The notes below the pieces were generated by a model, which was given only the letters and a program-made list of their open reading frames with translations, searched no databases and was not told where the DNA came from. A stretch of DNA of 64,000 nucleotides from an uncultured Verrucomicrobiae bacterium (GTDB lineage Bacteria; Verrucomicrobiota; Verrucomicrobiia; Chthoniobacterales; JAFAMB01): positions 416,001-480,000 of the forward strand of contig CAVXLD010000010.1 of the NCBI GenBank assembly GCA_963762565.1. The letters run 5' to 3'. The translations under genes were made by a program, and so were the position numbers. Of the stretch, positions 1,500 to 60,222 are shown piece by piece. Position 1 is the stretch's first letter, and each line of letters begins with the position of its first letter.

Positions 1500-1697
1500 G
1501 AGCTAGGCGCTTCGCGACAGTCGTTCTCGTCCTCGTCGTCGATTGGGGGCGACGAAACGCATGCGCGGCTCCCCTCCGGACGTTGGATCGGTGCGGGCCA
1601 ATTCAGCTTACAAACTTTCGAGGACGAGGACGAGAACGATTAAGATAGAGCCTCGACACGCCTCCACTAGCTCCCAGATTCTAGCTCCTAGCTCCTT
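1476..1697. repeat. Nested (GGAGCTA)n / TCGTCC palindromic element between convergent genes
   Basis: Same arms as 135-459; the arms supply the TAG stops of both flanking genes. Confidence 0.85.
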
Positions 1698-22265: not shown

Positions 22266-22341
22266 TTGTGGGCTAGCTGTTGATCGAAATGAATACCGCC
22301 TAAAAACATCTCCAACCCCGTGGAATCGCGGAGGGAAAATC

Positions 22342-22583
22342 GGGGAGGGCGCGCTGCCTGTCCGACATAGCCTTATGCATCCGATCGGTTTTTCTCCGAG
22401 CGGGGCGACGTCGGATCCCCGCGCGCCGCGAGGACGCGTCACAACTTGAAAATGTATTTTCGTCCGCGATCACGAGACCTCCTCGACTTCGGTAACAACG
22501 GATCGCGAGGATCCGACGTCGCCAGCGCTGGGAAGAAAAGACCCTCGATGGAAGGCTATGTCGGACAGGCTGCGATCCCTCCC
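22342..22583. repeat. Family E REP doublet carrying two CCTGTCCGAC inserts
   Basis: gggagggcgcgc[61 nt]tccccgcgcgccg...gatcgcgagga[60 nt]gcgatccctccc. Confidence 0.9.
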
Positions 22584-22637
22584 AAGCTTGTCGCCCGCTC
22601 GCCGTTTCGCCCACTCGCCCACTCGCCCTTTCGCCAC

Positions 22638-23231
22638 CTACTGCTTGCCCTTCTGAATCTCTTCAGGCCAAACGAAACCGCTCTGAAGGAAGTCGACCAG
22701 AGAAGCGCCATTGGCGCCTTCTGAAGCCGCATAAGTGAAACGATACTCGATATTCCAGTCGCCCCGACGTGCTACTAACAAGCGTGACCGTAGCGGTTGA
22801 ACTTTCCCGGCAAAAGTATCGGTGTATTCATAATTGGCCACGAGCGCTGGGTTCTTTTTGGGACTAACGAAACCCGTCCCACGGTCTACCAACTTTGTAT
22901 CCTGGTGTAGAGCGACGATCTGATTCTCACGAACCACAAACTCCGTTTCTAACAGTCGGCCGTTGCTCGGATACACATAGATCGTCGCGGCGATTCGCGG
23001 TGTATCAACTTCGTAGCCAATCGATACCCCCTGTCCAGCCGTATCATATTGCCGGGTCATAACTCGCTGGAATTTTCCGATCTTATTTGGAAACGAAAAT
23101 CCGGACGCGATATGAATGATATTGCCGTCAAGAGTCACCGCAAAGGGACCGGAAGCGGCCTTCGCCCGCTCATCGCCTAGAGTGAACACCAAGCCAATGC
23201 ACGCCAGCCAAAGACGCAGATCGGATCGCAT
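22638..23231 (-). CDS. Hypothetical exported protein
   Basis: Signal-peptide-like N-terminus and a beta-rich ORF of about 197 aa. Confidence 0.65.
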   Translation of the reverse strand: MRSDLRLWLACIGLVFTLGDERAKAASGPFAVTLDGNIIHIASGFSFPNKIGKFQRVMTRQYDTAGQGVSIGYEVDTPRIAATIYVYPSNGRLLETEFVVRENQIVALHQDTKLVDRGTGFVSPKKNPALVANYEYTDTFAGKVQPLRSRLLVARRGDWNIEYRFTYAASEGANGASLVDFLQSGFVWPEEIQKGKQ

Positions 23232-23358
23232 AGGCAATTACTGCCCGGGAGGCTGCGATTCTTCAAGACCAACCCTGTGTCCTGTCCCATAAATAACATG
23301 GCTTCGCTCGGCAGCTGCCGGGCGGCTGCCGACCGGCGGTCCATTTTGATCGCAACGA

Positions 23359-23375
23359 AAGGCACGTTATTTGCG
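23359..23375 (+). promoter_or_regulatory. Possible sigma-54 (-24/-12) promoter for the hybrid kinase
   Basis: aGGCACG-ttat-TTGC matches TGGCACG-N4-TTGC, but it overlaps a possible decayed MITE end. Confidence 0.3.
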
Positions 23376-23479
23376 TGCAACTCCCTGGACACGGATTAGA
23401 TTCGGGGTCGCGAACATACGATGTTGTTTGAGACATCAGGGTTGGTGTTCGATCTGCTATAAAACCTCGTTCGAGTTCT

Positions 23480-26400
23480 ATGGCTGTTGAGCCTTCAGGA
23501 CATGTCTACGAAACCTTGCGAGTCGATGAAGAGTTTAGCCTTTGTCGAGTTCGACAGGAGGGAGAGCCTTCGACTGTTCTGGTTGTAGCCCCGGTTTCGG
23601 AATATCCATCACTCGGAAGCTTAGCCCGCCTGGAGCATGACTACTCATTACGGGACGAACTTGACCCGGAGTGGGCGGTTCGACCGGTGGCGCTCAGCCG
23701 CCAAGGGAGACGGATAGAGCTTGTACTTGAAGATCCCGGCCCCGGAGCCGCCGGGCTTGACCGTTTGCTCAGCAACCCGATCGAACTAGACCGCTTCTTA
23801 CGCTTGGCTATAAATCTGGCCGGTGGACTCGCGAAGCTGCATCAGCGGGGGCTCATTCACAAAGACATTAAGCCTGTCAACATACTGGTAGACGCCGTGA
23901 CCGATCGGGTCTGGTTCACCGGCTTCGGGTTTGCTTCTCGGCTAAGGCGCGAACAGCACGCAGCCGAGCCTCCTGAGGTGATAGCCGGCACACTAGCCTA
24001 CATGGCGCCCGAGCAGACAGGCCGTATGAATCGGTCCATCGATTCTCGCAGCGATCTTTATTCACTGGGCGTAACCCTCTATCAGATGCTCACCGGTGCG
24101 CTTCCGTTCGAAGCCGCCGATGCCATGGAGTGGGTTCATTGCCATGTAGCCAGGCAGCCTCCGAGCCCGAGTGAACGGTTGGCCAGCGTACCTGAGCCTA
24201 TTTCGGCGATCGTCTTGAAACTCCTGGCTAAGACTGCTGAGGAGCGCTATCAGACAGCCACGGGTCTCGAGGCGGATTTAAAGAAATGCTGGTTGGAATG
24301 GAAGCAGGAATGCCGGGTCAATGCGTTCCCTCTGGGATTGGAGGACGTGCCAGACCGGCTGGCGATCCCGGAAAAACTCTACGGCCGCCAGCAGGAATGC
24401 CAAATACTGCTGGATGCCTTTGATAGGGTAGCTGCTTCCGGCAAACCGGAATTGATCCTCGTGACCGGCTATTCCGGGATTGGCAAGTCCTCACTCGTGC
24501 ACGAGCTGCAGAAACTGATTGTCTTACCAAGAGGCATCTTTATTTCGGGCAAATTCGACCAGACTAAACGGGATATCCGATATGCAGCGCTAGCCCAAGC
24601 TTTCAAGCCTTTGGTGCATCAAGTCCTACTTAAGAGCGAGGAGGAGGTCGATCGTTGGAAGAATGTTATTCTCAATGCGCTGGGGCCAAATGGCCAGCTG
24701 ATGATCAACTTGGTCCCAGAACTGGAGCTAGTTATCGGCAAGCAACCAGACCCCCCAGATCTTCCTCATCAACAAAGCCAAAATCGATTTGAGGCGGTCC
24801 TACGCGCGTTCATCGGGGTATTCGCCCGCAAAGAAAACCCTTTGGTGCTGTTCCTCGACGACCTCCAATGGCTCGACTCAGCTACGCTCAAGCTGCTCGA
24901 ACAGCTGCTCACCGACTCAAGCGTCCAGCATCTGCTCTTGATCGGCGCTTACCGAGATAACGAGCTAGTTGAGCGTCCAGAGGAGCATCGACTTGAGTTC
25001 CATACGGGTTCGGCAGCCGCGACACGTTGGCTAGGGCACGCCGAACGTGGCCGGGCCAAGGGTTTCACCGACAACGTGGTGGTGATAACCCGTCATCCAC
25101 TCCTGCTGGTCCTCGATTCAATCCGCAAGAGCGAGGTGGTCCTTCATGAGATTGTCCTCAATCCGCTTTCTCTTGCGGACGTGAACCAGTTGCTTGGAGA
25201 CGCCCTGCGTTGCGAGCTCAATCGTGCAAGACCCTTGGCAGAGCTTGTACACGAGAAGACCCGAGGCAATCCTTTCTTCACCCTTCAGTTCCTGACCAAC
25301 CTGGCTGAAGAGCATCTGCTTGAGTGCGACGCGGGAGCGGCGCTTTGGCGATGGGATATGGAACGCATCCGGGCCAAGGATTTTACCGATAACGTGGTGC
25401 ATTTCATGATCGGGAAGCTAAATCGTCTATCAGACGAGACGCAGGAAGCCCTAAAGCAGCTCGCCTGTTTGGGAAGCGGAGCCGAAGCAGTCACGCTGGC
25501 CTTGATACGAGGGGTATCGGAGACGCAGCTCCATGGCGCTATCTGGGAAGCCGTTTGGGAGGGACTTGTCTTGCGGGAGGGTGGCGCCTACGCGTTCCTC
25601 AACGACCGGGTGCAACAGGCGGCCTACGCGCTCACTCCCGAGAGCGAAAGAGCAGCCGTACACCTTCGAATCGGCAGATTACTGGTTTCGCGGATGCGGC
25701 CGGAGGAAGTAGAGGAGGATATCTTCAAGATCGTCAACCAGTTCAATCGTGGTACCGCGTTGATCGACTCCCGGCAGGAACGAGAGGAAATCGCCAGATT
25801 CAATCTCGTTGCTGGAATACGGGCGACGAATTCGACGGCGTATGCTTCGGCACTCAATTACTTCGCCACCGGCCGGGAGCTGCTGGCCGCGGAGAGTTGG
25901 GAACGCCAGTACGCGCTTACCTTCGCGCTGGAGCTCCGGCGGGCCGAGTGCGAGTTTTTGACCGGTAATTTCACGGCGGCTGAAGAACAGCTGTCCAGGC
26001 TATCGCACCGCGCCAGGGACCTACCGGATAGTGCCGCTGTTGCCCGTCTGCAAACGGAACTGTATGGCGCTCTAGACAGGAGCGAGTGCGCTGTCGCGGC
26101 AGCGTTCGACTACCTGCGACGCGCCGGGATCGATTTGCCGCTGCACCCAACCAATGATCAGCTCCGCCAGGAATATGAACAGGTTTTGCAACAACTAGAG
26201 AACCGGTCCATCGAGTCGCTCCTCGAATTACCCGCGATGACCGATCCGGTTTGCCGGGCGAATCTTGACGTTCTCGCCGCAGCCGAGGCTCATTCCTTTC
26301 TCGTTAACCAGGACCTACGGTGTCTGGTCGTGGCTCGCATTGTAAACCTCAGCCTCAAATACGGTAATAGCGACGGATCATGCATTGCCTACGTCCAACT

Positions 26401-28792
26401 CGGATGGCTGGTTGCCCCACGCTTTGGCGACTATCAAGCCGCGCTCCGTTTCGGCCAGCTTGGCCTCGATCTAGTCGAGAAGCGAGGACTCGAACGATTC
26501 GGGACCCGGGTCTCCCAATGCTTCGCCTATTTTATCAGTCCCTGGTCACGGCCTTTACACAACAGCCTCGAATTGTTGCGACGCTCGTTCTTCACCGCGC
26601 TTGAGACTGGCGATTTAAAGTATGCCGTGTTTTCCGGCGACCGCTTGATTACCCTGCTTCTGGCGATCGGCGCCCCTCTAAGCGAAGTGCAATACGAGGC
26701 CCAGGACCGCCTCGAATTCACGCGAAAAGCGAAGTTTGGCTACGTCGCCGATATCATCGTGGGAAACCTGAGATTCATCCGAGCTCTTCGGGGTCTGACC
26801 GCGAGCCTGTCCTCGTTTGACGATGCTGAGTTTGACGAGAGGCAGTTCGAGCAGAGGTTGAGAATCAATCCGAACTCGCTCTTCGCCCGGTGCTGGTATT
26901 GGATCCGGAAGCTGCAAGCGCTCTATTACGCGGACGACTATGACTCGGCGCTTCAGGCGGCATCCATGGCCGAGCCGCTGCTGCAGACTGGACCAGGACA
27001 TTTTGAGTATGCTGAATACACTTTCTTCAGCGCGCTGGCCCTGGCCGCACACTACGACTCTGCATCATCCGAGCAACAAACCCAGTATCGAACGGCACTC
27101 GCCGCCCGCCACAGACAGATCGCGGTGTGGGCGGAGAATTGCCCGGAAAACTTCGGGAATCGGGCGGCGTTAGTGGCAGCAGAGGTTGCCAGGATCGAAG
27201 GTCGGACTCTAGACGCCGAAAATCTTTACGAAAAGGCGATTCAATCCGCCCGGCAACATGGCTTCATCCAAAACGAGGCCATCGCTCACGAAGCGGCAGC
27301 GCGATTTTACTCGGGACGCGGCTTCGTCACGATTGCAAACGCTTATTTGCGCAGCGCCCGTTACTGTTATCTGCGCTGGGGAGCCGCCGGTAAGGTTGAG
27401 CAGCTGGATCAACGCTACCCGAACATCGCCCAAGAAACGTCGTTGCGACCCAGCGTCCAGATCGCCGAACCGGTTAGGCAAGTGGATTTAGAGACAGTGA
27501 CGAAGGCGTCGCAGGCGGTCTCAAGCGAGATCGTCCTCGAAAAGCTGATCGAGACACTATTGACCATTGCGCTTCAGCATGGCGCTGGCGAGCGAGCTCT
27601 CTTGATTCTTCAGCGAGGGGATCACCAGCAAATTGCAGCGGAGGCAAAAAGCGTCCGGAACAAGATTGCCGTTGATTTTCGCGAATCAACGTTAACGCCT
27701 TCCGAGCTGCCGGAGTCGTTGATCCGTTACGTCATCCGAACTCAGGAGCGAGTCATTCTGAGTGACGCTTCGGCTGACAATATTTTCTCGGAAGATGAAT
27801 ACATCCGCCAAAAACATCCTAGATCCGTGCTCTGCCTTCCTTTGATCAAGCGGCGCAGATTGGTTGGCACCCTCTATCTCGAGAATAACTTGGCACCCAA
27901 CGTTTTCGCGCCCAACCGCCTGGCCACCTTGGAGCTAATCGCGTCCCAAGCCGCGATCTCGTTGGAACAGGCTCGGCTATATGCTGAACTAACGCACGCC
28001 AATGAAGAGCTAAAGGCCGAGATCGCTGAGCGCCGCCGCGCTGAAGAAGCCTTGCGCCAAAATGAGGCTTCTTTGCGTGAAGCGCAAACCCAACTGGCTC
28101 ACGTTAGCCGGTTAACCACCATGGGAGAAATGGCGGCTTCCATTGCCCACGAACTCAATCAGCCGCTGGCGGGCATGGTAACGAACGCCAATGCAAGCCT
28201 GCGCTGGCTGGCGGGAGCTTCGCTTAACCTTACCGAAGCCCGCGAAGCCATCAGCCGCATTGTCCGCGATGGCACCCGGGCCGGCGACGTGGTTACCCGG
28301 TTGCGAGCGCTCTTTAGGAAGGCTAATCCGGCAAAAGAGGCGGTGGATATAAACAAGGCCATTGAGGAAGTTCTCGTCCTCACCCAGAGCGAAGTTAAGA
28401 GAAACAAAGTGTTATTGCGGATGGACCTGGCCGCGAACTTGCCGCCGGTTACGGCTGACCGAGTACAAATACAGCAGGTAGCCCTAAACCTGATCGTGAA
28501 CGCTATCGAAGCGATGAGCACCGTAGACGACCGTGAGCGAGAGCTGACAGTTGGCACCCAAACTGGCCAAGACGATCAAATCCGGGTCGTGGTACGGGAC
28601 TCAGGGATTGGGTTTGATCCGCTGAACGCTGAACGAATCTTTGATGCTTTCCATACCACCAAACCAGGTGGGCTAGGCCTTGGGCTGGCGATCAGCCGTT
28701 CCATTGTTGATTGGCATGGCGGCCGGCTCTGGGCGGTCACGAACGACGGTCCAGGCGCAACTTTCCAATTCACGCTTTCGCCCTGTCAGTAA
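23480..28792 (+). CDS. Hybrid Ser/Thr kinase - AAA ATPase - GAF - sensor histidine kinase
   Basis: HKDIKPVN, YMAPEQTGR, Walker A GYSGIGKS, LFLDDLQW, GAF LYLENN, H-box AHELNQP, N-box, DSGIG, GLGLGL. Confidence 0.95.
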   Translation: MAVEPSGHVYETLRVDEEFSLCRVRQEGEPSTVLVVAPVSEYPSLGSLARLEHDYSLRDELDPEWAVRPVALSRQGRRIELVLEDPGPGAAGLDRLLSNPIELDRFLRLAINLAGGLAKLHQRGLIHKDIKPVNILVDAVTDRVWFTGFGFASRLRREQHAAEPPEVIAGTLAYMAPEQTGRMNRSIDSRSDLYSLGVTLYQMLTGALPFEAADAMEWVHCHVARQPPSPSERLASVPEPISAIVLKLLAKTAEERYQTATGLEADLKKCWLEWKQECRVNAFPLGLEDVPDRLAIPEKLYGRQQECQILLDAFDRVAASGKPELILVTGYSGIGKSSLVHELQKLIVLPRGIFISGKFDQTKRDIRYAALAQAFKPLVHQVLLKSEEEVDRWKNVILNALGPNGQLMINLVPELELVIGKQPDPPDLPHQQSQNRFEAVLRAFIGVFARKENPLVLFLDDLQWLDSATLKLLEQLLTDSSVQHLLLIGAYRDNELVERPEEHRLEFHTGSAAATRWLGHAERGRAKGFTDNVVVITRHPLLLVLDSIRKSEVVLHEIVLNPLSLADVNQLLGDALRCELNRARPLAELVHEKTRGNPFFTLQFLTNLAEEHLLECDAGAALWRWDMERIRAKDFTDNVVHFMIGKLNRLSDETQEALKQLACLGSGAEAVTLALIRGVSETQLHGAIWEAVWEGLVLREGGAYAFLNDRVQQAAYALTPESERAAVHLRIGRLLVSRMRPEEVEEDIFKIVNQFNRGTALIDSRQEREEIARFNLVAGIRATNSTAYASALNYFATGRELLAAESWERQYALTFALELRRAECEFLTGNFTAAEEQLSRLSHRARDLPDSAAVARLQTELYGALDRSECAVAAAFDYLRRAGIDLPLHPTNDQLRQEYEQVLQQLENRSIESLLELPAMTDPVCRANLDVLAAAEAHSFLVNQDLRCLVVARIVNLSLKYGNSDGSCIAYVQLGWLVAPRFGDYQAALRFGQLGLDLVEKRGLERFGTRVSQCFAYFISPWSRPLHNSLELLRRSFFTALETGDLKYAVFSGDRLITLLLAIGAPLSEVQYEAQDRLEFTRKAKFGYVADIIVGNLRFIRALRGLTASLSSFDDAEFDERQFEQRLRINPNSLFARCWYWIRKLQALYYADDYDSALQAASMAEPLLQTGPGHFEYAEYTFFSALALAAHYDSASSEQQTQYRTALAARHRQIAVWAENCPENFGNRAALVAAEVARIEGRTLDAENLYEKAIQSARQHGFIQNEAIAHEAAARFYSGRGFVTIANAYLRSARYCYLRWGAAGKVEQLDQRYPNIAQETSLRPSVQIAEPVRQVDLETVTKASQAVSSEIVLEKLIETLLTIALQHGAGERALLILQRGDHQQIAAEAKSVRNKIAVDFRESTLTPSELPESLIRYVIRTQERVILSDASADNIFSEDEYIRQKHPRSVLCLPLIKRRRLVGTLYLENNLAPNVFAPNRLATLELIASQAAISLEQARLYAELTHANEELKAEIAERRRAEEALRQNEASLREAQTQLAHVSRLTTMGEMAASIAHELNQPLAGMVTNANASLRWLAGASLNLTEAREAISRIVRDGTRAGDVVTRLRALFRKANPAKEAVDINKAIEEVLVLTQSEVKRNKVLLRMDLAANLPPVTADRVQIQQVALNLIVNAIEAMSTVDDRERELTVGTQTGQDDQIRVVVRDSGIGFDPLNAERIFDAFHTTKPGGLGLGLAISRSIVDWHGGRLWAVTNDGPGATFQFTLSPCQ

Positions 28793-29085
28793 AACGACGG
28801 TTTGGCCTTATTTTTGGGCGATCGTAAAAAGCTTGCTCACACGATCTACATCAGTCCGTATCAAAACAGGACTGCCTGGAGCGTGACGATTCTTAAGATA
28901 ACGTAAGTCCAAATTCTCGTACTGAAGTCTTCGAGTATTGCTACGATACATAAGCATTTGATAGGAAGGAACAAGCGTCAGAGCATAACAAGTTGGCACG
29001 TAACCTGTTACACCTTTTGCCGGACAGGAGATTGTTGCCGCGTTAGTTCATACATCCAGTCAATCTTGAACATCGGAGTGAACCT

Positions 29086-32174: not shown

Positions 32175-32205
32175 GGCCCGATCATCACACTTGAGAATCG
32201 CCGAC

Positions 32206-33705: not shown

Positions 33706-33735
33706 CACGGCGTTGAAAGCGTAAAGCCCGGCGCC

Positions 33736-33918
33736 GGGGAGGGATCGCAGCCTGTCCGACATAGCCTTCCATCCAGGGTCTTTTCTTCCCAGCGCTGGCG
33801 ACGTCGGATCCTCGCGATCCTTTCTTACCGACGCCGAGAACCCGTTATTATCGTGGGCGAAAATACACCTTTTGATTGTGGCACGTCCTCGCGTCGCCCG
33901 GGGACGCGTGCCCTCCCC
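33736..33918. repeat. Family E REP doublet with one CCTGTCCGAC insert
   Basis: Inverted homolog of 22342-22583; insert at 33749-33808. Confidence 0.9.
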
Positions 33919-33983
33919 GATTGCCCAAAGAGATACTAAATTGCGATTGATGCTCGATTTCGTAGCTTTGAGGACAAAGGACT

Positions 33984-34361
33984 ATGAGCGACAAAGCTTC
34001 CCCATCCGAATATCTCGTCATTTGCAGAGGCCAATGGGATAAAACCGCTTCGCGAGACCAAATCCAAAACGTTATCGATCAATTCTACGTCTGGCTTAAC
34101 GGATTGGTTGACGAAGGTAAAATGAAGCACGGGCAGCGGCTAAAGTACGAAGGGAGACTCGTCAGTCGTCGAAATGCTGTAACCGATGGACCTTTCAGTG
34201 AGTCCAAGGAAGTGATTGGTGGTTTTTGGTTTGTGCTTGCTAACACCCTTGATGAAGCCGCAGAAATCGCCGCCAGCAATCCTTGTCTCGACTATGGCTT
34301 GTCCCTTGAAATCAGACCCATCGATCAAGACATTGCCTCGGCTGACAATACTAATCCCTAG
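33984..34361 (+). CDS. YciI family (DGPF) protein
   Basis: TDGPFSESKEVIGGF, LEIRP. Confidence 0.9.
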   Translation: MSDKASPSEYLVICRGQWDKTASRDQIQNVIDQFYVWLNGLVDEGKMKHGQRLKYEGRLVSRRNAVTDGPFSESKEVIGGFWFVLANTLDEAAEIAASNPCLDYGLSLEIRPIDQDIASADNTNP

Positions 34362-34364
34362 AGG

Positions 34365-34663
34365 ACCGCAGATTGGCCCGAACTAACAGAAGGGAATATC
34401 CGCAGATTACGCAGATTTCGGTTTGAGGCGGGCTTAGCCCAGCGTGAGAGAAACCGCCGAGCACGAGCGAAGTCTTGAGCCGCAGCCTTGCTGCGGTGTC
34501 AGGTTTCGCTTCTCAAAAATCTACTAGTTACTATTTCCAGAACGCTCAACCGCGTTTCGCTTGAGCTTGCCAGCCTCCAGCCGACAGACCTTCTCCAACC
34601 TCAAAACGAAATCTGCGTAATCTGCGGATATTTCCATTCCCCTCTTCCGCATCAATCTACGGT
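34365..34663. repeat. Family F (CGCAGATTA)n element
   Basis: ccgcagattacgcagatttcggtttgagg...aacctcaaaacgaaatctgcgtaatctgcgg. Confidence 0.85.
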
Positions 34664-36160
34664 TCACGCGGGAACAGCCGCTTTAGCGATATCCCCGGCA
34701 TTGGACAGTTTCTCGACGTCCCAACAGAGGGCGATTAGCTTTTGGATTTGCTCCGGTTTGAGGATCCCTTCCGCAAGATCGGTAAACTTTGATTCGAGAT
34801 CATGATCTGTCATCGGTGCTTCCAAGCTCCCGATCGCATGCTGGATCGTTTTATCGAGTTGTCGCCCATCCTTAAGGGTCAGGGTCATCTCGACCTGCTC
34901 CGGCTTAACCGTAGAGTCGACCACAGGCGCCACGCGAGTGCGGAGGGCAACGATAGTGGGATCCTGAACAGCTCTATCGCTAAACTGCTTTTCACCGGCT
35001 GCACCCTCGACAATCGCGACCGCGACCGCGTGGTAAATGCTAAATTTACCTTCTAAGCCAGTAGTTGGCGTTTTCTTTCCGGTTAGCTCCAACACCAACG
35101 GATTTACCTTAAGATTGATCGTCTCGATTTGGTCGGGCTTGATCTGATATTGATTGCGCAATTGGATCGCGGCATCGATCGCCGGATGCATCACAATTCC
35201 GCAAGCGAAAGGTTTGTAAGTATTCAGCAGCGCCTCGTAGCGTTCCCCAAGTCCTTCGGTAATCTCTTTGTAATCCTGTTTGGTCGAGATGGTGTTAGCC
35301 CAGCCACGCTTGGCCTCGATCATCTGATCGGAACTGGTAAAATTCTTCGAGGCAAGGAATGCAGCGAATAGACCGTTACTGGCGGCGCGCCCCGGATTAA
35401 AACTTTTGTTCATTGAACCGAAGGATTCTCGAAGGCCTACAGGCTGCGATGCCGCTAGTCCAATAGCCCAAATCATTTGTTGTTCTGAAAGACCCAACAG
35501 CTTCCCGGCACTAGCCGCTGCCCCAAAGACGCCTGCAGTTCCGGTGATGTGCCAACCTCGATCATAATGATCCGGATAAACCGCGTTCCCGATCCGGCAC
35601 TCAGTTTCTACCCCAAGAATCAATGCATTCAAAAAGGCCCGGCCATCCACAGGCCGGTACTTGTCGCGCCATAGCGGAGCGGAGGCGGATTCGGCGAGCG
35701 CCAGAATGGCAGACACAACCGGACCCGCCGGATGGATGATGGTCTTCAAATGCGTATCATCGTAATCGAAAATATGTGCGGAAACGCCGTTGATAAACGC
35801 GGCGTTCATCACATCGAAACGTTCGCGGCGCCCAAGGATAGACGCTTGGGACGGTCCTGAGAATGGCGCTAAAGCGTCGACGGCAATATCGATCGTTTCA
35901 TGATGAGACCCGCCCACGGCTACGCCGACCCAATTAAGCAGGGTGCGTAGCCCTTCCTTGCGCACATTCGCGGGCAGATCCTCGTAACGGGCGGAGACAA
36001 TGTAGCTGGCGAGTATTTTGGTCACCTGCGGGATTGAAGGCGAGGGCGAGCCCATAAGCTCTCTGTTGTTGCTGGCGGCCAGCGCCAAGTCCGGCGCCAC
36101 AGCGCCGGCCGCAATAGCGGTAGTAGCGCGTAGAAAAGTCCGTCGGTCAATTTTTGCCAC
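34664..36160 (-). CDS. MmgE/PrpD family protein with twin-arginine signal
   Basis: DRRTFL Tat motif; HIFDYDDTH, IHP, GWHITG, KPFACG, GKFSI; GAGGAG RBS. Confidence 0.92.
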   Translation of the reverse strand: MAKIDRRTFLRATTAIAAGAVAPDLALAASNNRELMGSPSPSIPQVTKILASYIVSARYEDLPANVRKEGLRTLLNWVGVAVGGSHHETIDIAVDALAPFSGPSQASILGRRERFDVMNAAFINGVSAHIFDYDDTHLKTIIHPAGPVVSAILALAESASAPLWRDKYRPVDGRAFLNALILGVETECRIGNAVYPDHYDRGWHITGTAGVFGAAASAGKLLGLSEQQMIWAIGLAASQPVGLRESFGSMNKSFNPGRAASNGLFAAFLASKNFTSSDQMIEAKRGWANTISTKQDYKEITEGLGERYEALLNTYKPFACGIVMHPAIDAAIQLRNQYQIKPDQIETINLKVNPLVLELTGKKTPTTGLEGKFSIYHAVAVAIVEGAAGEKQFSDRAVQDPTIVALRTRVAPVVDSTVKPEQVEMTLTLKDGRQLDKTIQHAIGSLEAPMTDHDLESKFTDLAEGILKPEQIQKLIALCWDVEKLSNAGDIAKAAVPA

Positions 36161-36297
36161 CGTATTGCTCCTCTTGGTTTTAGTGTCCTGTCCCCATCTT
36201 AGCCCCGGTTGGGCCTATCCACCACGCCGACCTACCTGGGTACTCGCAGGGCACATCGCACTCTCGTCCTCGTCCGAGATGAACGCGGCCCCTCGCC

Positions 36298-36476
36298 GGG
36301 AGGGATCGCTGCCTGTCCGACATAGCCTTCACTTCCTGGTTTCTTTTCTCCCAGCTTGGGCGACGTCGGATCCTCGCGATCAGTTGTTCTCGAAGCCCAA
36401 GGCAAACCCGGTCAGGTGTTACAGTAAGTTCCAAGATTATAGGCCTGTTCGCGGCGCGGGGACGCGCGCCCTCCCC
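36298..36476. repeat. Family E REP doublet with one CCTGTCCGAC insert
   Basis: gggagggatcgc[36310-36370]tcctcgcgatc...ggggacgcgcgccctcccc. Confidence 0.9.
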
Positions 36477-36552
36477 AGGTCGTGCTCACTTCGCCACTAA
36501 CAGTCGGCGTGACAAAGATCGCGTTTCCTGATTCTCTATACACGCTGTGCCT

Positions 36553-37674
36553 ATGCGGACAACGCCTTTCATTGCCGGCCTGGTTCTGTCAGGCTTGTTC
36601 GCTGCATCCGGGGAAGAGTCGCAAAATGCATCACTCCCTGAAATCAAGGCTTCAGTCCGGTTTCACTCGGATTCTTATGGCAACGTACCAGACGAAATCC
36701 AGCTACCGGCAAGTACTTTGTTAGCGTCGAAAAACCGACGAGTCATGGAAGGGGATCTAGGCCGGTTGCCGATTCGTATTTTTATCAGGGAAACACCGAA
36801 TCAGACGACGCCCGCGATCGAGGTCAACATCGTTAATAATCGGACAAATAAAGCTCTGGCGGGGTACCCAACTCAGCAAGTAGTCGGTCCGCTACGGATG
36901 CTCAGCTTCAACATCCCTCTCATACCGACCGACTTAGAGACCCTGGTTCGCACGGCAAAAAAGAGCGTCGAAGGTAAACTCGGTAAAGTCGATAACGTCA
37001 CTTTGCATATTGATGTCGACATTCCAGTCAATCCGGAAACAAATTCGGATGGTAATCTTATTTTGGATTGCCAAGATCTTCTCAGACAGGATCAGCTCGT
37101 AGTAGACGATGTATCGCAGAAGATCAATGACACTAGTACCGCCGGTGTCGTTTCGGTTGCCAACGCTTATACGGGTTGTTTAGACAAGCAGACTGAAACG
37201 TTGAGCATCGAGTTAAAGGCCGATGATAAGAAGACCATCAACCGCATCCGCCAGTTGTTACCTGATGTAGCCCCGGTTAGTTTTGATTCAGCGATAAACC
37301 AGAACGGAGGGAGTTATTTTTCTCTGCTGGCGCTTGCTAGTGTCAGTGTCGGTACCAAACAAGCCGAGACGGTAAATCGCTTAGCTAAGCAACTGGCAGG
37401 AAACGCAGCTGCGAATCCGGAGGCACGGAAAGCCGTAGCAACCGCTTTCGCGTCATGCCAGGCAGCATTAAAGGAATTAGTGGCAGCCCCAGATGGCGCA
37501 ACTGACGACGTGAATGTCGCCGATTTGAAGAAGCAGTTTCAATCGGATTTAGCCAAAGCCAAAGCTGCCTTAAAGGAGCTCCAGGAAATCGCCGCTAAGT
37601 TACCGGACAATTCCGCCATGCTCTTGGCGCAATCAACTCTCTCTATTCTGACCACACCGCAGGGGTTCGAGTAA
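36553..37674 (+). CDS. Hypothetical secreted protein
   Basis: Signal peptide, beta-rich N-half and helical C-half; no family recognised. Confidence 0.7.
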   Translation: MRTTPFIAGLVLSGLFAASGEESQNASLPEIKASVRFHSDSYGNVPDEIQLPASTLLASKNRRVMEGDLGRLPIRIFIRETPNQTTPAIEVNIVNNRTNKALAGYPTQQVVGPLRMLSFNIPLIPTDLETLVRTAKKSVEGKLGKVDNVTLHIDVDIPVNPETNSDGNLILDCQDLLRQDQLVVDDVSQKINDTSTAGVVSVANAYTGCLDKQTETLSIELKADDKKTINRIRQLLPDVAPVSFDSAINQNGGSYFSLLALASVSVGTKQAETVNRLAKQLAGNAAANPEARKAVATAFASCQAALKELVAAPDGATDDVNVADLKKQFQSDLAKAKAALKELQEIAAKLPDNSAMLLAQSTLSILTTPQGFE

Positions 37675-37811
37675 GTGAATTGCACGAACCAGAACGATCG
37701 CAAAACCGAGACGGAGTGGCCCGATCGTGTTAAGCAGGCTCATACTCCGACCGCGCGTCGGAGCCATCGCTCCAGGTCAAACAGCGCCAATGTCTCGGCA
37801 CTGACTGCCAG

Positions 37812-37995
37812 CGTTGCCGACATGGACGCTGCGACCGTTGATCCAAAAACAGGCGAATTAAAACCTGAGTTCGTTCCTGACAGCAGTATCGGAAGTCCCG
37901 GCGATAAACTCCACCCCGACCGAGCCGGTTATCAAGCTATGGCCAACACCGTCGATATCAAGGTGCTCGCACCGCGAACCACAAAAGGCCTGTAG
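37812..37995 (+). pseudogene. C-terminal fragment of an SGNH/GDSL hydrolase
   Basis: D...DP......GDKLHPDRAGYQAMA (block V DxxHP); no GDS/G/N blocks recognised upstream. Confidence 0.6.
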
Positions 37996-38107
37996 CTCAC
38001 CCAGCTTCATTACGATGAATAGAGTTTAACGAAAGCGGTACTCGCATTGCGCGCGCGCCGTTTGATTTGAGTCGGGTTTGTGGGACAGGACACTAGCTGG
38101 CGGAAGT

Positions 38108-39220
38108 TTATAACTTCGTTTTCGGCCCAAATACCTCGACCAATTCCTCGAGCATAGCCGCGACCCTTGTATAATTCCTTTGAGGTTCGGTAACCGGCTG
38201 ATCGGCGGAGGCTCGTTTCTCCGCCAACGCAATCAATCGCTCGCTCGTGTCAGCCGAGCCGGATTGCAGCGACTTTTTCAACTCTGTGAGATCGGAGCCG
38301 CCGGCGGGTTTATTAAGTGCTTTCAGCGGTTGATCTCCGATCACAAGCTCCCAATCATGGGTGTCGGCAAAGTAAACCGCCGTAACCCCATTCCGTTCGA
38401 CTCCGAGCTGTTGAGCAATCGTTTCGGCTAACTCTGGCCGGGTCTGTCCGGGGCCGGTGGGTTCAAACGCTGCAAAGGCTCGGGCGTAGATCTTGACTCC
38501 CGTAAATCGCTCAAAGTTCGAAAGCTTATTATTGAAACTTTTTTCTCGAGGAGGAACGGCCGGCAATATTCCGTCTTCATCCGAAAAATGAGCGAACGCG
38601 ACTCGAGGGGCTTTAGCAATTAACTGGTCGAACGCAGCTTGGTCTGCGCGAAAGGCCTTCGCCGCCGCTCCTATGCGCAAAATCTTAACCTCCATCTTGT
38701 CGCCCTTCTGTACTTGAGGCAAAACCTCGAGTCCGCTAACGACTCTACCAAAAACGCTATGCAAATAGTTCAATTGGTTTTCCGCGTCTAAAGTGATGAA
38801 GAACTGGCAGCCGTTTGTATCCGGTCCGGAATTCGCCATCGATAAGACGCCGATCGAGTCATGACGAAGCTTCGGCGAAAACTCGTCTGGAAATTCGTAG
38901 CCCGGGTCTCCGTCACCCGTACCAAGTGGATCGCCTCCTTGGATGACAAAGCCCGGTACCACTCGATGAAACGTCAATCCATCGTAGAATGGTTTGCCCG
39001 GATTAGGTCCTAAGGCCCCCTCAGCCAACCCGACAAAGTTGGTAACCGTTAAAGGAGCTTCTTGATCGAACAACCGGGCGATGATGGTCCCGCGAGGTGT
39101 AATGATTTTCGCGTAAAGGCCGTCAGGCAAATATAAAGGGGAATCGGATGGTGACGGCGAAGCTGCCATTAACCGGCTGGCAGTGATGCTAGCGAAGAGA
39201 ATGAGGATAAGCGAACGCAT
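38108..39220 (-). CDS. Cyclophilin-type peptidyl-prolyl isomerase with signal peptide and extra C-terminal domain
   Basis: APLTVTNF, FHRVVPGFVIQGGDP, SMANSGPDTNGCQFFIT, HSVFG. Confidence 0.93.
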   Translation of the reverse strand: MRSLILILFASITASRLMAASPSPSDSPLYLPDGLYAKIITPRGTIIARLFDQEAPLTVTNFVGLAEGALGPNPGKPFYDGLTFHRVVPGFVIQGGDPLGTGDGDPGYEFPDEFSPKLRHDSIGVLSMANSGPDTNGCQFFITLDAENQLNYLHSVFGRVVSGLEVLPQVQKGDKMEVKILRIGAAAKAFRADQAAFDQLIAKAPRVAFAHFSDEDGILPAVPPREKSFNNKLSNFERFTGVKIYARAFAAFEPTGPGQTRPELAETIAQQLGVERNGVTAVYFADTHDWELVIGDQPLKALNKPAGGSDLTELKKSLQSGSADTSERLIALAEKRASADQPVTEPQRNYTRVAAMLEELVEVFGPKTKL

Positions 39221-39253
39221 TGCCCGCAGTATTTAGCTCAGGAGGGGAAGAAG

Positions 39254-39538
39254 GAATAGCCGCAAAAGATCGCAAAGAACGCAAAAAAAATGGTAGGGCG
39301 AGGCTCCCGAGAGACCTAAGTGCTTCATCAGGGCTGCCGACGTGCACCACATGCGCACCGTTTTTACGCCGATACGCGCGCCGAGCCGTGCCTAGCGCTC
39401 AACCACGGCTCGGCGCGCATATCGGGTTCAGCACGGGAAATATTGACGATATGCCGATCTCCCTGCTTACCCGTACGGTGTTTCGGGAGCCTCGCCCTAC
39501 CAACGCTGGGTATCTTTTGCGATCTTTTGCGGCTATTC
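39254..39538. repeat. (CGCAAAAGA) element enclosing a family C hairpin (39292-39501)
   Basis: Perfect 23-bp IR gaatagccgcaaaagatcgcaaa / tttgcgatcttttgcggctattc. Confidence 0.88.
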
Positions 39539-39865
39539 TTTCTCTGCTGCACGGCCCGCAGCCAACGGCACCTCAGCATTCAACCATTTGCTAAAGCTCT
39601 CATTCACTGACTCAGGCGCTATCTCGGCCACCAGATTGGTATAGCTGATATATTGCCGCACGAGCTCTTCAATCGCTTTGCGATAGCCGGCCTGGGTCTT
39701 GACCAGCAGCACGGTCTCCGGTTCTTCCACTATCTTACCTTCCCAACGATAAGCACACGTGATCGGAAACCAGTTAGTGCACACCGCCAATTGCCGCTCC
39801 AACAATGCTCTACCGATCCGGCGAGCCTCATCGTCCGTGTTCAACGTGATGTAGTAGATGCGCAT
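39533..39865 (-). CDS. cutA: Divalent cation tolerance protein CutA
   Basis: EARRIGRALLERQLAVC, YRWEGKI, E..LLVKT. Confidence 0.9.
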   Translation of the reverse strand: MRIYYITLNTDDEARRIGRALLERQLAVCTNWFPITCAYRWEGKIVEEPETVLLVKTQAGYRKAIEELVRQYISYTNLVAEIAPESVNESFSKWLNAEVPLAAGRAAEKE

Positions 39866-39886
39866 GGGAGAAGAAGTACCCCAAAA

Positions 39887-40094
39887 GGTAGGGCGAGGCT
39901 CCCGAATTATAGACAGGTCGTCGCGGCGTGAAATGACGATTCATGGTATATGGGATGCAACGACTGAAAGCTGCCGAGCCGTGGGTCGCGCAATCCAAGG
40001 CTCGGCAGCTTCTATACGATGCACCTGATATACCAACGAAATGCCATTTATCCCGGCGACTCCCTTTCGGCTAATTCCGGAGCCTCGCCCTACC
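39887..40094. repeat. Family C 208-nt REPIN-like hairpin
   Basis: ggtagggcgaggctcccga...ggagcctcgccctacc; apex gctgccgagcc/ggctcggcagc. Confidence 0.9.
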
Positions 40095-40129
40095 AAACTA
40101 CCCTGCGACTCACCTTGAGGACGATCAAA

Positions 40130-41920
40130 ATGACAATTTCGATACGGATGGGATTAGTAGCAGCCATTGGGGCGGTAGCCATTGCCAGTTATGCGGGCGA
40201 GACCCAGGGTTGGGTGCAGAAAAGCAATGAGGCTGCTAAGCCGCTGCTCGAATACATCGCCAGGTATACGCCCGAATATGGTTCTTCAATCGGGATCGAC
40301 AAAGCAGACGAAGGCGTCATCGATCTAAAGCCAGATCTCTACGCACGCACCAAGGAAGACGGAGAAAAGATAGTCCAAGAGTTGCAGGAGAAGGAATCAG
40401 CCGAGTCCGACCCCAGGGTGCGTCGCGATCTTGAGATCTTGATCACCGCACAAAAGAACAGTCTGGAAACCCGAAGGCTCAATCAAGAGCTGATGCTTCC
40501 GTTCTACGATGTCGCGGAGACCGCTTTTGATGGTCTGCAAAGCTTGTTAGATCCGCGTAATTCAGCTGCCCGGCAAGCGAAAGCAATTGTCCGATTGAAC
40601 CGGTACGCCGGTCAGGAAACCGGTTTCGAAGCGATCACTGAATTAGCGAAAGCACAAACCGAAGCGATGCTGGGGAATGCTAAGTTGGTTCGCCCATACA
40701 TCGCTCAGGTAAACGATGCCATCAGCAATACCCAAACGTATTTGGATGGTATTGCTGAGATGTTCCGAACCGCCAAACTCAGCGGTTGGGAAGCCGCACA
40801 TGCGGCACTAACTCGCCAACTTTTAGCTTACAAAGATTGGTTAATAAAAGAGATCTTACCTCAAGCCAGACAAACGAATCCGCTGCCAGAAGCGATCTAC
40901 GCAGATAATCTGAAAAATAACGGGGTGCTGATTGACCCGCACATCTTGATGGAACGCGCTCGATTCGAATTCGTCGAAATTCAGGACGAGATGCGGACGC
41001 TGGCTAAGGTCATCGCTCAGCAGGAAAAGCTGAGTTCGTCTGATTATCGCGAAGTCATCCGTTCGCTGAAGCACCGAACCGTTCCACCAGACCAGCTGTT
41101 GTCGTTCTATCAGCAGAGGTTGACCCAAATCGAGAAATTGGTGGAGGAGAACAATATCGTTAGCCTACCGAAGCGGCCGACGATTATCCGGTTGGGGTCA
41201 GCGGCTGAGACCGCGGAAGAGCCGGCTCCGCACATGAACCCACCGCGCTTGATCGATAATCAAGGGGAGTACGGCGAGTTCGTGATACCGAATGGCAAAG
41301 ACGGTCTTGACGAAGATTTCGTCAACGAGGGCGAATCCTGGACATTGACCGCACACGAGGCGCGCCCAGGTCACGATCTCCAGTTTACCTCCATGGTCGA
41401 CAATGGAGTCTCAATCGCGCGTTGTATCTTTGCCGACAACAGCGCCAACGTGGAAGGTTGGGCGGTCTATATGGAAGCCGTCATGGAGCCGTACGAACCG
41501 CTAGATGGCCAGCTCTTTTCGCTTGATGATCGGTTACTCCGGATTGCGCGCGCCTTCCTTGATCCGATGCTGAATCTGGGCTTGATGAAACCGGAAGAAG
41601 CTAAGGCATTTCTGATAAACGAAGTGGCTCTTTCCGAGTCAGACGCTCGAGAAGAAGTGGAACGTTACACTTACCGCGCTCCCGGGCAGGCTGCCGCGTA
41701 CTTCTACGGCTATATGACCCTGCGAGAATTAAACGAACGAACTAAGCTCGCTTTGGGCGCAAAATTCAACGAAAAGGCCTACCACGACTTCATCCTATCG
41801 CAAGGCCTCCTTCCGCTAAACCTAATGGCCGAAGCCATCCAGGAGGAGTTTGTTCCGAAGTACTCCAGCGCCACGATAGGGACGAACTCCCACGCGTCCG
41901 CCGGCTCCATCGGGCATTGA
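40130..41920 (+). CDS. DUF885 family exported protein (putative metallopeptidase)
   Basis: HEARPGHDLQ, EGWAVYME, EVERY..PGQA..Y; GAGGA RBS before ATG 40130. Confidence 0.88.
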   Translation: MTISIRMGLVAAIGAVAIASYAGETQGWVQKSNEAAKPLLEYIARYTPEYGSSIGIDKADEGVIDLKPDLYARTKEDGEKIVQELQEKESAESDPRVRRDLEILITAQKNSLETRRLNQELMLPFYDVAETAFDGLQSLLDPRNSAARQAKAIVRLNRYAGQETGFEAITELAKAQTEAMLGNAKLVRPYIAQVNDAISNTQTYLDGIAEMFRTAKLSGWEAAHAALTRQLLAYKDWLIKEILPQARQTNPLPEAIYADNLKNNGVLIDPHILMERARFEFVEIQDEMRTLAKVIAQQEKLSSSDYREVIRSLKHRTVPPDQLLSFYQQRLTQIEKLVEENNIVSLPKRPTIIRLGSAAETAEEPAPHMNPPRLIDNQGEYGEFVIPNGKDGLDEDFVNEGESWTLTAHEARPGHDLQFTSMVDNGVSIARCIFADNSANVEGWAVYMEAVMEPYEPLDGQLFSLDDRLLRIARAFLDPMLNLGLMKPEEAKAFLINEVALSESDAREEVERYTYRAPGQAAAYFYGYMTLRELNERTKLALGAKFNEKAYHDFILSQGLLPLNLMAEAIQEEFVPKYSSATIGTNSHASAGSIGH

Positions 41921-41990
41921 ACGGCGTCTGGTGACACTTAGCAGGGACCCATAAGTCATATAGGTCCCATCCGTGGATCGCAGAGCCACT

Positions 41991-42108
41991 GGGAGGGATC
42001 GCGTCCTCGCGATCAGTGGTTCGCGGAGCTCAGCGCAGACCAGATTGAGGGCTTAACCGTATCGACGATGCAGACCTGGCCGCGGCGCGCGGGGACGCGC
42101 GCCCTCCC
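41991..42108. repeat. Family E REP doublet, empty (118-nt) form
   Basis: gggagggatcgcgtcctcgcgatc...gcgcgcggggacgcgcgccctccc. Confidence 0.9.
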
Positions 42109-60218: not shown

Positions 60219-60222
60219 GTTT

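Follow-up and report, generated by a model that had tools for sequence, protein, structure and literature searches.

Family E doublets in the window and the hairpin nested in them

The window, the whole stretch of DNA that was analysed, comprises 64,000 nt of one contig of an uncultured Verrucomicrobiae bacterium. It carries several copies of family E, an inverted REP doublet with arms GGGAGGG-ATCGC / CGCGC, and of a second repeat, here called F. The features are as follows.

41991-42108, no strand assigned: family E doublet with both arms empty, the reference empty site
19760-19783, plus strand: lone empty family E unit of the CG type
22342-22583, no strand assigned: family E doublet with two inserts, one in the CG arm on the plus strand and one in the AT arm on the minus strand
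22355-22415, plus strand: H, long form of 61 nt, in place of the CG-arm loop G (folded)
22512-22571, minus strand: H, long form of 60 nt, within the AT-arm loop
33737-33918, no strand assigned: family E doublet with the AT arm filled and the CG arm empty and slightly degenerate
33749-33808, plus strand: H, long form of 60 nt
36298-36476, no strand assigned: family E doublet with the AT arm filled and the CG arm empty and slightly degenerate
36310-36370, plus strand: H, long form of 61 nt (folded)
211-271, minus strand: H, long form, within repeat F as GAGGAC-(AGCCTGTCCGAC..GTCGGA)-ACGACGA; empty copies of F read GAGGAC-G-A
1617-1650, plus strand: empty F-type site, TTCGAGGAC-GAGGACGAGAACGA
~387 (plus strand) and ~2469 (minus strand): further empty F-type sites

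In the reference doublet the arms read GGGAGGGATCGC-G-TCCTCGCGATC and, as the reverse complement, GGGAGGGCGCGC-G-TCCCCGCGCGC. The first-pass annotation had described doublets with no, one and two inserts, each insert 60-61 nt long and at the same position of the REP loop, and a diverged relative at 211-271 in another family of repeats. Checking the coordinates base by base upholds this description and identifies the host of the relative as repeat F. The degenerate right-hand arms of the two one-insert doublets were classed as 'other' in our survey of units. All four doublets are located between ORFs, a check that was made for the window. The pattern CCTGTCCGAC N35-50 GTCGGATCC matches four times in the window and not once in any of 100 shuffles, and CCTGTCCGAC occurs 142 times in the genome compared with about 12 occurrences by chance (an arithmetic estimate).

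We give the name H to a 30-nt non-coding hairpin that contains no ORF; the 61-nt insert is its long-loop version. The consensus of H is C[C/T]TGTCC-NNC-RWAGCY...RGCGAM-GNN-GGA. In its 30-nt core, a C[C/T]TG tag lies 5' of the foot of a hairpin; the hairpin is made up of an outer stem of 6 bp, a trio of conserved non-Watson-Crick positions (R-W-A facing G-A-M), an inner stem of 3 bp and a loop, which is 2, ~30 or ~70 nt long. Of the 253 paired genomic copies, 190 have the tag CCTG and 48 the tag CTTG (C[C/T]TG together in 238), and the stem covaries (TA/CG 220/26, AT/CG 164/74, CG/TA 174/48). A non-complementary A.G is found in the stem of 245 of the 253 copies, with A.C (120) or G.A (114) as the neighbouring pair. 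That the insert is itself a hairpin, as had been proposed, is true of its base, where TCCGAC faces GTCGGA and GCC faces GGC; the centre of ~30 nt shows no significant self-complementarity (mean z -0.23 for 94 copies), and 67% of its bases are pyrimidines. Three origins of this centre were considered and rejected: an extension of the hairpin, by the same z value; a decayed nested H, since the local alignment score is 5.72 against 6.24 for shuffles; and an independent repeat, since 13-mers of the centre occur outside H near chance level.

Junctions of filled and empty sites

Filled and empty sites can be compared at base resolution throughout the genome. Among 674 family E units, 427 are empty, 97 carry an insert of 57-64 nt and 19 carry the 30-32 nt form. 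The insert always occupies one identical junction, at which it replaces the single loop G without duplicating the target. Of 96 filled units, 70 have the linker TG and 23 the linker AG, and in 85 the insert measures 60-62 nt. A conserved target of 4-5 nt is absent 5' of the insert, the left flanks being GC, AC, CA, GA, GT or TG. The genome has 253 inverted family E doublets; in three of them, with spacers that are 89% identical, the CG arm is empty, filled with the short form and filled with the long form, respectively.

Repeat F is a second host and is non-palindromic. It is represented by 70 empty copies (GAGGAC-G-AGGAC) and 54 filled ones, in which 51 of the inserts begin with AG and one G is replaced, as in family E. 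H is thus a discrete unit with fixed junctions and with matched empty sites in two unrelated hosts. Clean insertions of the 30-nt form are seen at GGCCTCGCA^AGCGAGGC, at GCGCCGT^AGGC, within another H and, in a viral contig, in a tandem repeat rich in AT. H nests in other hairpins and in other copies of itself, and some copies sit in apparently unique flanks. Target duplication is absent at the family E, F, REP-G-like and viral insertion sites. The first-pass annotation had proposed that filled and empty junctions be tabulated, and had named as evidence against its own reading a segment confined to family E, with empty forms left by independent, ragged deletions. Neither is the case: what the genome-wide table gives is one G replaced in both E and F with no duplication, empties that are uniform since the loop G is present in 413 of the 427, and copies of H in repeat F, in other hairpins, in H itself, in other genomes and in viral contigs.

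These junctions bear on the direction of the change. The filled form could be ancestral, the empties having arisen by repeated precise excision through hairpin-stimulated deletion. Long hairpins are deletion-prone, and orientation-dependent loss could also bias the strands on which inserts survive. The empties are, however, uniform at the loop G and outnumber filled units by ~4:1, and no flanking direct repeat is present that could yield GC-G-TCC by slippage. The doublets that are most similar to each other, presumably the youngest, are almost all empty in both arms. In repeat F, moreover, the replaced G is part of the host's own GAGGAC hexamer periodicity, which makes the empty form the native one. 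We consider excision as the general explanation highly improbable.

Strand bias and independence from the host doublet

The replication strand was judged by GC skew, a proxy for fork direction, in an assembly of 15 contigs. Filled family E units lie on the locally C-rich strand in 67 cases and on the G-rich strand in 28 (binomial 8e-5), whereas empty units are distributed 150 to 170. The difference between filled and empty units persists in all nine combinations of window and threshold settings (Fisher p 1e-3 to 1e-4) and in each arm separately (AT arm 29:11, CG arm 28:12). Among doublets with a single insert, when the AT arm is on the G-rich strand, the AT arm is filled in 1 doublet and the CG arm in 16; when the AT arm is on the C-rich strand, the numbers are 16 and 10 (p 3e-4, both orientations). 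The filled arm of a doublet follows GC skew and not gene direction, which shows no bias (28/37 vs 120/110, p 0.21), and the skew bias of filled units is present in all four gene contexts. Crude ORFs number 1707 on the G-rich and 1478 on the C-rich strand. H in repeat F has no skew bias (18:19 filled, 31:26 empty). The bias in family E would be linked to replication, inasmuch as GC skew is a proxy for it. We propose that, if insertion is strand-specific, the arm that is hit would depend on the orientation of the doublet relative to the fork.

The inserts are independent of the doublets that carry them. In 38 pairs of doublets whose insert centres are at least 90% identical, the median spacer identity is 0.615 against a background of 0.58, and in one pair the centres are 100% identical while the spacers are 56% identical. 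When each doublet with a filled AT arm is matched to the doublet whose spacer is most like its own, that neighbour is empty in 33 of 34 cases, and the TCCY polymorphism of the arms is alike between filled and empty arms.

The inserts also fall into subfamilies that are nearly arm-specific. All 31 members of insert cluster 6 are in CG arms and all 28 members of clusters 8-11 are in AT arms, despite the shared GC-G-TCC target, and an extra W before the G is specific to subfamilies. In CG arms there is a weak correlation between the similarity of inserts and that of spacers (permutation p 0.013). Such subfamilies are not expected of a simple site-specific transposon, and they agree better with copying guided by flanking homology than with free transposition. 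One or a few original insertions for each arm type might therefore have been copied among family E units, mainly by short-tract gene conversion or replication template switching. This mechanism predicts no replication-strand bias, in conflict with the 67:28 distribution and with a filled arm that follows skew. It would also have to account for H in hosts that are unrelated, at sites whose flanks look unique and in viral contigs that offer no homologous donor flank, and for clusters 12 and 20, which are present in both types of arm. We regard it as an unlikely main route, though one that deserves more weight than excision.

Spread of H and a possible route of insertion

H is widely spread. Of 43 genomes from the bacterial family, 18 contain H, and 11 of these lack family E; the reversed-pattern control gave 0. 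In one relative, G012, a 5.0-Mb contig holds 102 copies. A scan of a genome collection returned at least 120 H loci and, among the matches listed, the record titles name many phyla and the MAGs with H are labelled as at least ten phyla. The N pair of the consensus is complementary in 92 of the 123 matches listed, compared with 25% expected by chance. Three genomes of 0.7-1.4 Mb and one of 2.0 Mb hold 5-7 copies each (control 0), and H was found in 13 viral contigs.

In three relatives (G002, G003 and G005), the coding flanks are 77-86% identical, but the orthologous intergenic DNA holds other repeats and so offers no counterpart with which filled and empty states could be compared; no polymorphic site was seen. 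When the insert boundaries were compared with contigs of four soil-metagenome runs, no joint appeared among the matches listed. One soil-metagenome contig stops matching at 36309, the left insert junction. That H has moved is suggested by comparisons of sites within genomes.

Could H be an immobile motif, a protein binding site or RNA element whose structure is kept by selection? Its compensatory stem changes and conserved non-canonical trio, its single 30-nt core across many phyla and the strand-asymmetric, 67% pyrimidine loop would all suit such a role. A copying process is nevertheless needed for 253 copies with the same ends in unrelated repeats, for self-nesting and for the clean insertions in viral contigs, and a bias in gene direction is absent. 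Nor does any Rfam family match H: RNase P is the sole family of Rfam 15 that passes in the window, and nothing relevant was found at 22200-22700 (E<=10) or at 16 H loci from other phyla (E<=1). We think it very unlikely that H is immobile. Function and mobility are compatible and not mutually exclusive.

The first-pass annotation had suggested an autonomous partner with the same ends (IS200/IS605 TnpA, RAYT or IS110), and none was found in the genome. At none of its 12 Y1_Tnp loci do H or family E units lie on both sides; a cognate RAYT gene may be missing from the assembly, which is 94% complete. Near two of the loci there is one 12-mer resembling family E, in one case with one mismatch, and another has an H-like module inside a repeat array downstream. 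Four groups of Y1_Tnp genes lie between or next to REP-like repeats of other types, and the flanks of 10 Y1 genes, examined as partners of H, show other repeats or none. The Y1 proteins encoded at C5:482843, C12:565110, C3:501577 and C4:78656 have no REP of their own. At the Y1 loci of two relatives (G012 and G017), the one find was an H ~190 nt away from a RAYT whose REP is a different one. Two Y1 types were rejected as partners, as their phyletic patterns over the 43 genomes do not match that of H cleanly. No longer element sharing both ends of H within 5 kb is present in the genome; for 44 left ends of H, the nearest right-end matches 200-5000 nt downstream all look like chance. Four near-identical 1.65-kb IS110 copies have unrelated ends and lie outside family E, and nothing relevant was found at two further IS110 loci. 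The best score for an integron integrase (TIGR02249) was 78 bits against a cut-off of 265.

We favour the reading, with a probability of roughly 60%, that H is a non-autonomous REP-like element inserted strand-specifically, via single-stranded DNA, by a Y1 HUH enzyme. H would be, or would recently have been, mobile in trans. It would go in as one unit without duplicating its target, and would take the place of the single loop G when the target is a family E REP loop, with a strand specificity set relative to replication. Spread by insertion seems to us the likelier route; most probably, a Y1 HUH enzyme of the RAYT or IS200/IS605 type would transpose it as single-stranded DNA and would recognise the tag together with the imperfect hairpin. 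The independent, site-specific, non-autonomous element proposed at first pass is supported, with refinements: H is discrete and independent, and 'non-autonomous' fits a unit that can code for nothing. To call it a REP parasite is too narrow because REP loops are one among several targets, and the arm-specific subfamilies do not follow from simple site-specific transposition.

A bolder version is that H is a third REP-like kind, defined by its C[C/T]TG tag and R-W-A/G-A-M internal loop, with a core nearly unchanged over at least ten labelled phyla, including candidate-phyla-radiation genomes below 1.5 Mb, and phage contigs. An unnamed enzyme would insert it into transient single-stranded DNA, preferably into hairpin loops, its own included. 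We put this forward tentatively, as a possibility that we would not yet bet on. If true, the doublets with no, one and two inserts, whose filled arm would be predicted by replication direction, would be the first natural record of the way in which a REP-type hairpin is inserted. Arguments about the spread of REP-type hairpins still draw on population patterns and on the biochemistry of E. coli TnpA(REP). It is rare to have natural insertion junctions together with matching empty sites, and this genome has hundreds of matched empty and filled sites, resolved to the base. It also has two unrelated hosts, self-nesting and an internal control, since each doublet offers two target arms in inverted orientation and the arm on the C-rich strand is filled preferentially; these make the question of spread directly testable. 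A 30-nt core shared by distant phyla and phage contigs is unusual among REP-like repeats, and points to a widespread mobilising enzyme or an unnamed conserved cellular factor.

Comparison with known systems

Integron attC sites are folded imperfect palindromes with conserved outer boxes (R''/R', RYYYAAC / GTTRRRY), an unpaired or non-canonical middle and a very variable terminal loop. H resembles this architecture in its outer boxes, non-canonical central part and variable loop. It ends, however, in GTCCGAC / GTCGGA without the AAC/GTT triplets, and neither cassette arrays nor an integron integrase accompany it. MITEs have terminal inverted repeats, a target-site duplication and a parent IS, whereas H is not accompanied by a duplication or by a longer element within 5 kb.

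The likeness to IS200/IS605 elements and PATEs is closer, as these also lack target duplication and are recognised through hairpins. H, at 30-61 nt, is to our knowledge far smaller than any non-autonomous derivative of IS200/IS605. In these elements the left and right subterminal hairpins differ from each other and the target is a fixed one of 4-5 nt, whereas H has one hairpin and variable left flanks. The IS608 model predicts a clean insertion, whereas one base is replaced by H in E and F. According to the available text of two sources, IS608 and ISDra2 act at the lagging-strand template (PMC3333891) and their orientation is tied to the replication strand (PMC3333891; PMC6006769). By the GC-skew proxy, H has a comparable orientation in family E (67:28 filled vs 150:170 empty) and an even one in F (18:19).

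H is most like the REP/BIME/REPIN repeats that are associated with RAYT. Like them, it is a short imperfect palindrome in high copy number (a 30-nt core in 253 copies, where REPs are 20-40 nt) and is intergenic, as checked in the window. Two further features are shared: a conserved tetranucleotide that immediately precedes the hairpin foot on its 5' side, and conserved non-complementary stem bases (A.G in 245/253). As described in the accessible part of PMC3333891, E. coli TnpA(REP) requires the tetranucleotide and the stem mismatch and acts on single-stranded DNA only. The REP tetranucleotide is GTAG or CGTC in the passages available from PMC3733652 and PMC3333891, whereas the tag of H is C[C/T]TG. 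A RAYT gene flanked by its own REPs was not found for H. A REPIN or BIME unit is made of two inverted REPs, whereas H occurs as single nested units; family E does form doublets. The core of H recurs across phyla, while REP families are, in the available text of PMC3733652, partly species-specific and partly common to several species. The literature, as far as its text was accessible, holds no description of H and no occurrence of two H-specific strings; H strings are likewise absent from the accessible supplements of PMC3733652, although overlap with one of its families is possible.

Insertion into REP hairpins has precedents. IS1397, IS621 and ISPpu9/10 insert specifically into them (Tobes and Pareja 2006, PMC1525189; Delihas 2011, PMC3184786), and these REP-targeting elements are, in the text available, protein-coding members of the IS3 and IS110 families, whereas H has no ORF. 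The nearest precedent is in the available text of Di Nocera et al., who place REP units inside larger palindromes and report hundreds of unoccupied copies of the target palindrome in Thermomicrobium roseum; the point is made in passing, and the authors say that the issue was not investigated. Compared with that account, the host of H in family E is itself a REP doublet with no, one or two occupied arms, the junction is resolved to the single base, and H has other hosts and nests in itself.

Family E doublets and the hairpin in their loops

Family E consists of two related REP units, inverted and about 70 nt apart, with an AT arm (GGGAGGGATCGC-G-TCCTCGCGATC) and a CG arm (GGGAGGGCGCGC-G-TCCCCGCGCGC). 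In a filled unit, WGCCTGTCCGAC-RTAGCC-(about 30 nt)-GGCGAM-GTCGGA stands in place of the single loop G. The first-pass annotation had described doublets with zero, one and two inserts in the window, and a relative of the insert in another repeat; all its coordinates hold on re-checking:

211-271 (-): relative of the insert
22342-22583: doublet, two inserts (22355-22415, 22512-22571)
33736-33918: doublet, one insert (33749-33808)
36298-36476: doublet, one insert (36310-36370)
41991-42108: empty doublet

All four doublets are intergenic (between ORFs), and the pattern CCTGTCCGAC N35-50 GTCGGATCC has four matches in the window versus none in 100 shuffles. In the assembly (6.12 Mb, 15 contigs, 54% G+C; the window is C10:416001-480000), filled and empty junctions were tabulated for 674 family E 5' halves with at most one mismatch.

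Table. Family E units in the genome (n = 674).
Empty: 427 (loop G in 413)
Long insert: 97 (AT arm 48, CG arm 48, unassigned 1)
Short insert, 30-32 nt: 19 (CG arm in all)
Another AT-arm variant: 34
Other or degenerate: 97

Among the 96 filled units first scored, 85 have an insert of 60-62 nt, and TG (70) outnumbers AG (23) as the linker. There are 253 paired doublets. In 176 of them each arm is either empty or long-filled: neither is filled in 126, only the AT arm in 21, only the CG arm in 20 and both in 9, against about 5 estimated arithmetically under independence. In 34 units (32 AT arms) the 3' half-stem CGATCCG is replaced by a perfect 16-nt hairpin, TCCGGCAGCYGCCGGA, which is a third way of remodelling the family E REP; such units occur genome-wide (e.g. 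C1:1213442 (-), C10:403227 (-)), with none in the window.

The insert has invariant termini and a centre that varies among subfamilies. Comparison beyond family E reveals that it is built on a basic 30-nt hairpin, which we call H, with the consensus C[C/T]TGTCC-NNC-RWAGCY-TT-RGCGAM-GNN-GGA. Minimal copies are present in this genome. The stems carry compensatory changes (TA/CG 220/26, AT/CG 164/74, CG/TA 174/48), and between them a non-Watson-Crick trio is conserved, with A.G in 245 of 253 copies and a neighbouring A.C (120) or G.A (114).

Table. Length of the 253 genome copies of H having both ends.
25-34 nt: 35
35-49 nt: 16
55-64 nt: 128
65-74 nt: 3
85-99 nt: 69
Longer: 2

The centre of the long form is 67% pyrimidine and has no self-complementarity (mean z -0.23). 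That it is a decayed H copy was rejected by comparison with H, and that it is an independent repeat by a genome search of the centre sequence. Many centres contain TTCTCCC or CTTCCC (e.g. 22372-22403, 36327-36358), which could conceivably pair with the complementary GGGAGGG that lies unpaired at the host REP's 5' end. In the 85-99-nt class, the loop contains a unit of a further hairpin repeat, GGCCTCGCAAGCGAGGC, also arrayed beside a 348-aa Y1 gene. No Rfam family matches H; elsewhere in the window, 60220-60623 (-) matches the Rfam bacterial RNase P RNA class A (177.5 bits).

Probable insertion and strand preference

In a set of three doublets that share their outer flanks and have spacers 89% identical, the CG arm is empty in one, short-filled in another and long-filled in the third. 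In 38 doublet pairs with insert centres at least 90% identical, the median spacer identity is 0.615 (background 0.58, 90th percentile 0.74), and one pair combines identical centres with unrelated spacers. Insert and spacer similarity are uncorrelated for AT arms (permutation p 0.27) and weakly correlated for CG arms (p 0.013). For 33 of 34 doublets with a filled AT arm, the closest relative by spacer is empty, and arm polymorphism is similar between filled and empty arms. As for deletion, which the annotation expected to leave ragged junctions, the empty forms are uniform, and among the doublets most alike nearly all have both arms empty, so that empty units are the basal form. Taken together, these comparisons suggest that filled units arose by insertion, rather than by co-amplification or deletion. 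That insert subfamilies are almost arm-specific counts against free transposition.

Intergenic regions orthologous to two window doublets in three related genomes (G002, G003, G005; L030-L041) hold GCTCCGTAGGAGC hairpin repeats, not family E; across the genus, the repeats found between a given pair of genes turn over completely. A 1.8-kb soil-metagenome contig (run X5, record 7) fits window 34597-36309 and ends at the exact left junction of an insert, 36309/36310, with about 104 letters unplaced; it may represent an allele with no insert or with a different one.

Local GC skew served as a proxy for the direction of the fork. By this measure, 67 filled family E units are on the C-rich strand and 28 on the G-rich strand (binomial 8e-5), as against 150 and 170 for empty units. 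The contrast stands whichever of nine pairings of window size with threshold is used (Fisher 1e-3 to 1e-4), and the bias is found in both arms (29:11 and 28:12). Among singly filled doublets with the AT arm on the G-rich strand, the AT arm is filled in 1 and the CG arm in 16; with the AT arm on the C-rich strand, the counts are 16 and 10 (p 3e-4, both orientations). Gene direction does not explain the bias: sense/antisense counts in co-directional intergenic regions are 28/37 for filled and 120/110 for empty units (p 0.21), and the skew bias is 14:9 in sense, 22:6 in antisense, 17:9 in convergent and 9:3 in divergent contexts. Crude ORFs slightly favour the G-rich strand (1707 vs 1478). Should the lagging-strand template be the G-rich strand, what is exposed there would be the complement of the H consensus given above, 5'-TCCGNC...GNCGGACARG-3'.

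Other hosts and distribution of H

H also occurs outside family E: in a second repeat (F), in other palindromes, in H itself and in genomes lacking family E. Repeat F is non-palindromic, with the empty site ..TTCGAGGAC-G-AGGACGACGA..; among 231 anchors, 70 are empty and 54 filled. Filled sites start with AG in 51 of 54, and the replaced base is the G of the host hexamer periodicity. H copies in F have no skew bias (18:19). The copy at 211-271 sits in F, and empty F sites are also present in the window. Repeat F is made up of octamer repeats (..ACTCC), GGATTCGAGGAC and a run of GAGGAC/GACGAC/GAGAAC hexamers, and is found genome-wide and in the window at about 150-340, 387, 1617 and 2469. It has two target sites, GAGGAC-G-AGGAC and, downstream, GAGGAC-G-AGAAC, the latter holding CTGCCCGAC...GTCGGG variants. 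Short H units are nested exactly in GGCCTCGCA^AGCGAGGC, in GCGCCGT^AGGC and within another H.

In the bacterial family, 18 of 43 genomes carry H (reversed-pattern control 0), and they fall in 5 of 11 genera; empty units of family E are present in only 9 genomes, and H without family E in 11. In relatives having family E, all 12 H copies examined are in its loops, with species-specific centres; in a genome of another genus (G017), all 14 are minimal and lie inside a different palindromic repeat.

A genome-collection scan gave at least 120 loci; over the entire collection, roughly 17 pure chance matches are expected by estimate. The variable pair is complementary in 92 of the 123 matches listed (25% by chance), and many matches are H nested in an H loop or head-to-tail arrays. 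Titles among the matches listed include Verrucomicrobiota, Planctomycetota, Omnitrophota, Kiritimatiellia, Lentisphaerae, Acidobacteriota, Bacteroidota, Proteobacteria, Dadabacteria, Saccharibacteria and Uhrbacteria, these being MAG labels for which mis-binning is possible. Several MAGs from other phyla carry tandem arrays of the H 3' half (AGCYTYRGCGAAGGCGGA, 18 nt) or of the whole 30-nt unit (L125, L126, L151, L161-L164, L167, L172). Four genomes of 0.7-2.0 Mb have 5-7 copies each (control 0). The exact 28-nt core is found in 13 viral contigs in unrelated contexts; in two of these, it cleanly interrupts an AT-rich tandem repeat.

Candidate enzymes and comparison with known systems

Twelve Y1_Tnp matches, forming several groups, were found in the genome; four groups are flanked or adjoined by REP-like repeats of other types, and none of the 12 could be tied to H or family E. 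A gene at C1:531665-532708 (L006) encodes a protein of 348 aa whose N-terminal domain is Y1_Tnp. In the roughly 300 nt downstream of it, at least five GGCCTCGC-AA/GA-GCGAGGC units are arrayed, and the loop of the last one holds an H-like 30-nt module; the array hairpin is also what makes up the loop in the 85-99-nt H class. As partners of H, IS110 elements were excluded on examination of the genome's copies, and an integron integrase by a search of the genome. One 1.65-kb IS110-family element has four copies more than 99.5% identical (C1:471817, C3:319565, C4:142755, C9:31301); each has in its right flank, at a distance of about 90 nt, a hairpin GCCGAGCCG...CGGCTCGGC that may be the element's own target repeat.

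REPs are known targets of insertion sequences (PMC1525189; PMC3184786), and a passing remark in PMC3733652 mentions REPs inside other palindromes, one of which is also found unoccupied. Our literature search found no description of a CYTG-tagged hairpin, its nesting, its cross-phylum spread or strand-dependent arm choice.

TnpA(REP) is active only on ssDNA and requires GTAG together with a mismatch in the stem, and IS608/ISDra2 act at the lagging-strand template (PMC3333891; for the latter also PMC6006769). We infer that H is mobile and has an enzyme, which would recognise it as a tetranucleotide plus an imperfect, mismatched hairpin, as with TnpA(REP); transposition would be of the ssDNA type at the replication fork, as with IS608/ISDra2. 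H resembles the TnpA(REP)/IS608 substrates in its foot tetranucleotide, imperfect hairpin, conserved mismatch and lack of target duplication and, for copies in family E and with GC skew as the proxy, in a replication-strand bias. The IS608 model leaves two features unexplained, the replacement of one base at E and F sites and the arm-specific subfamilies; a homology-assisted step may contribute.
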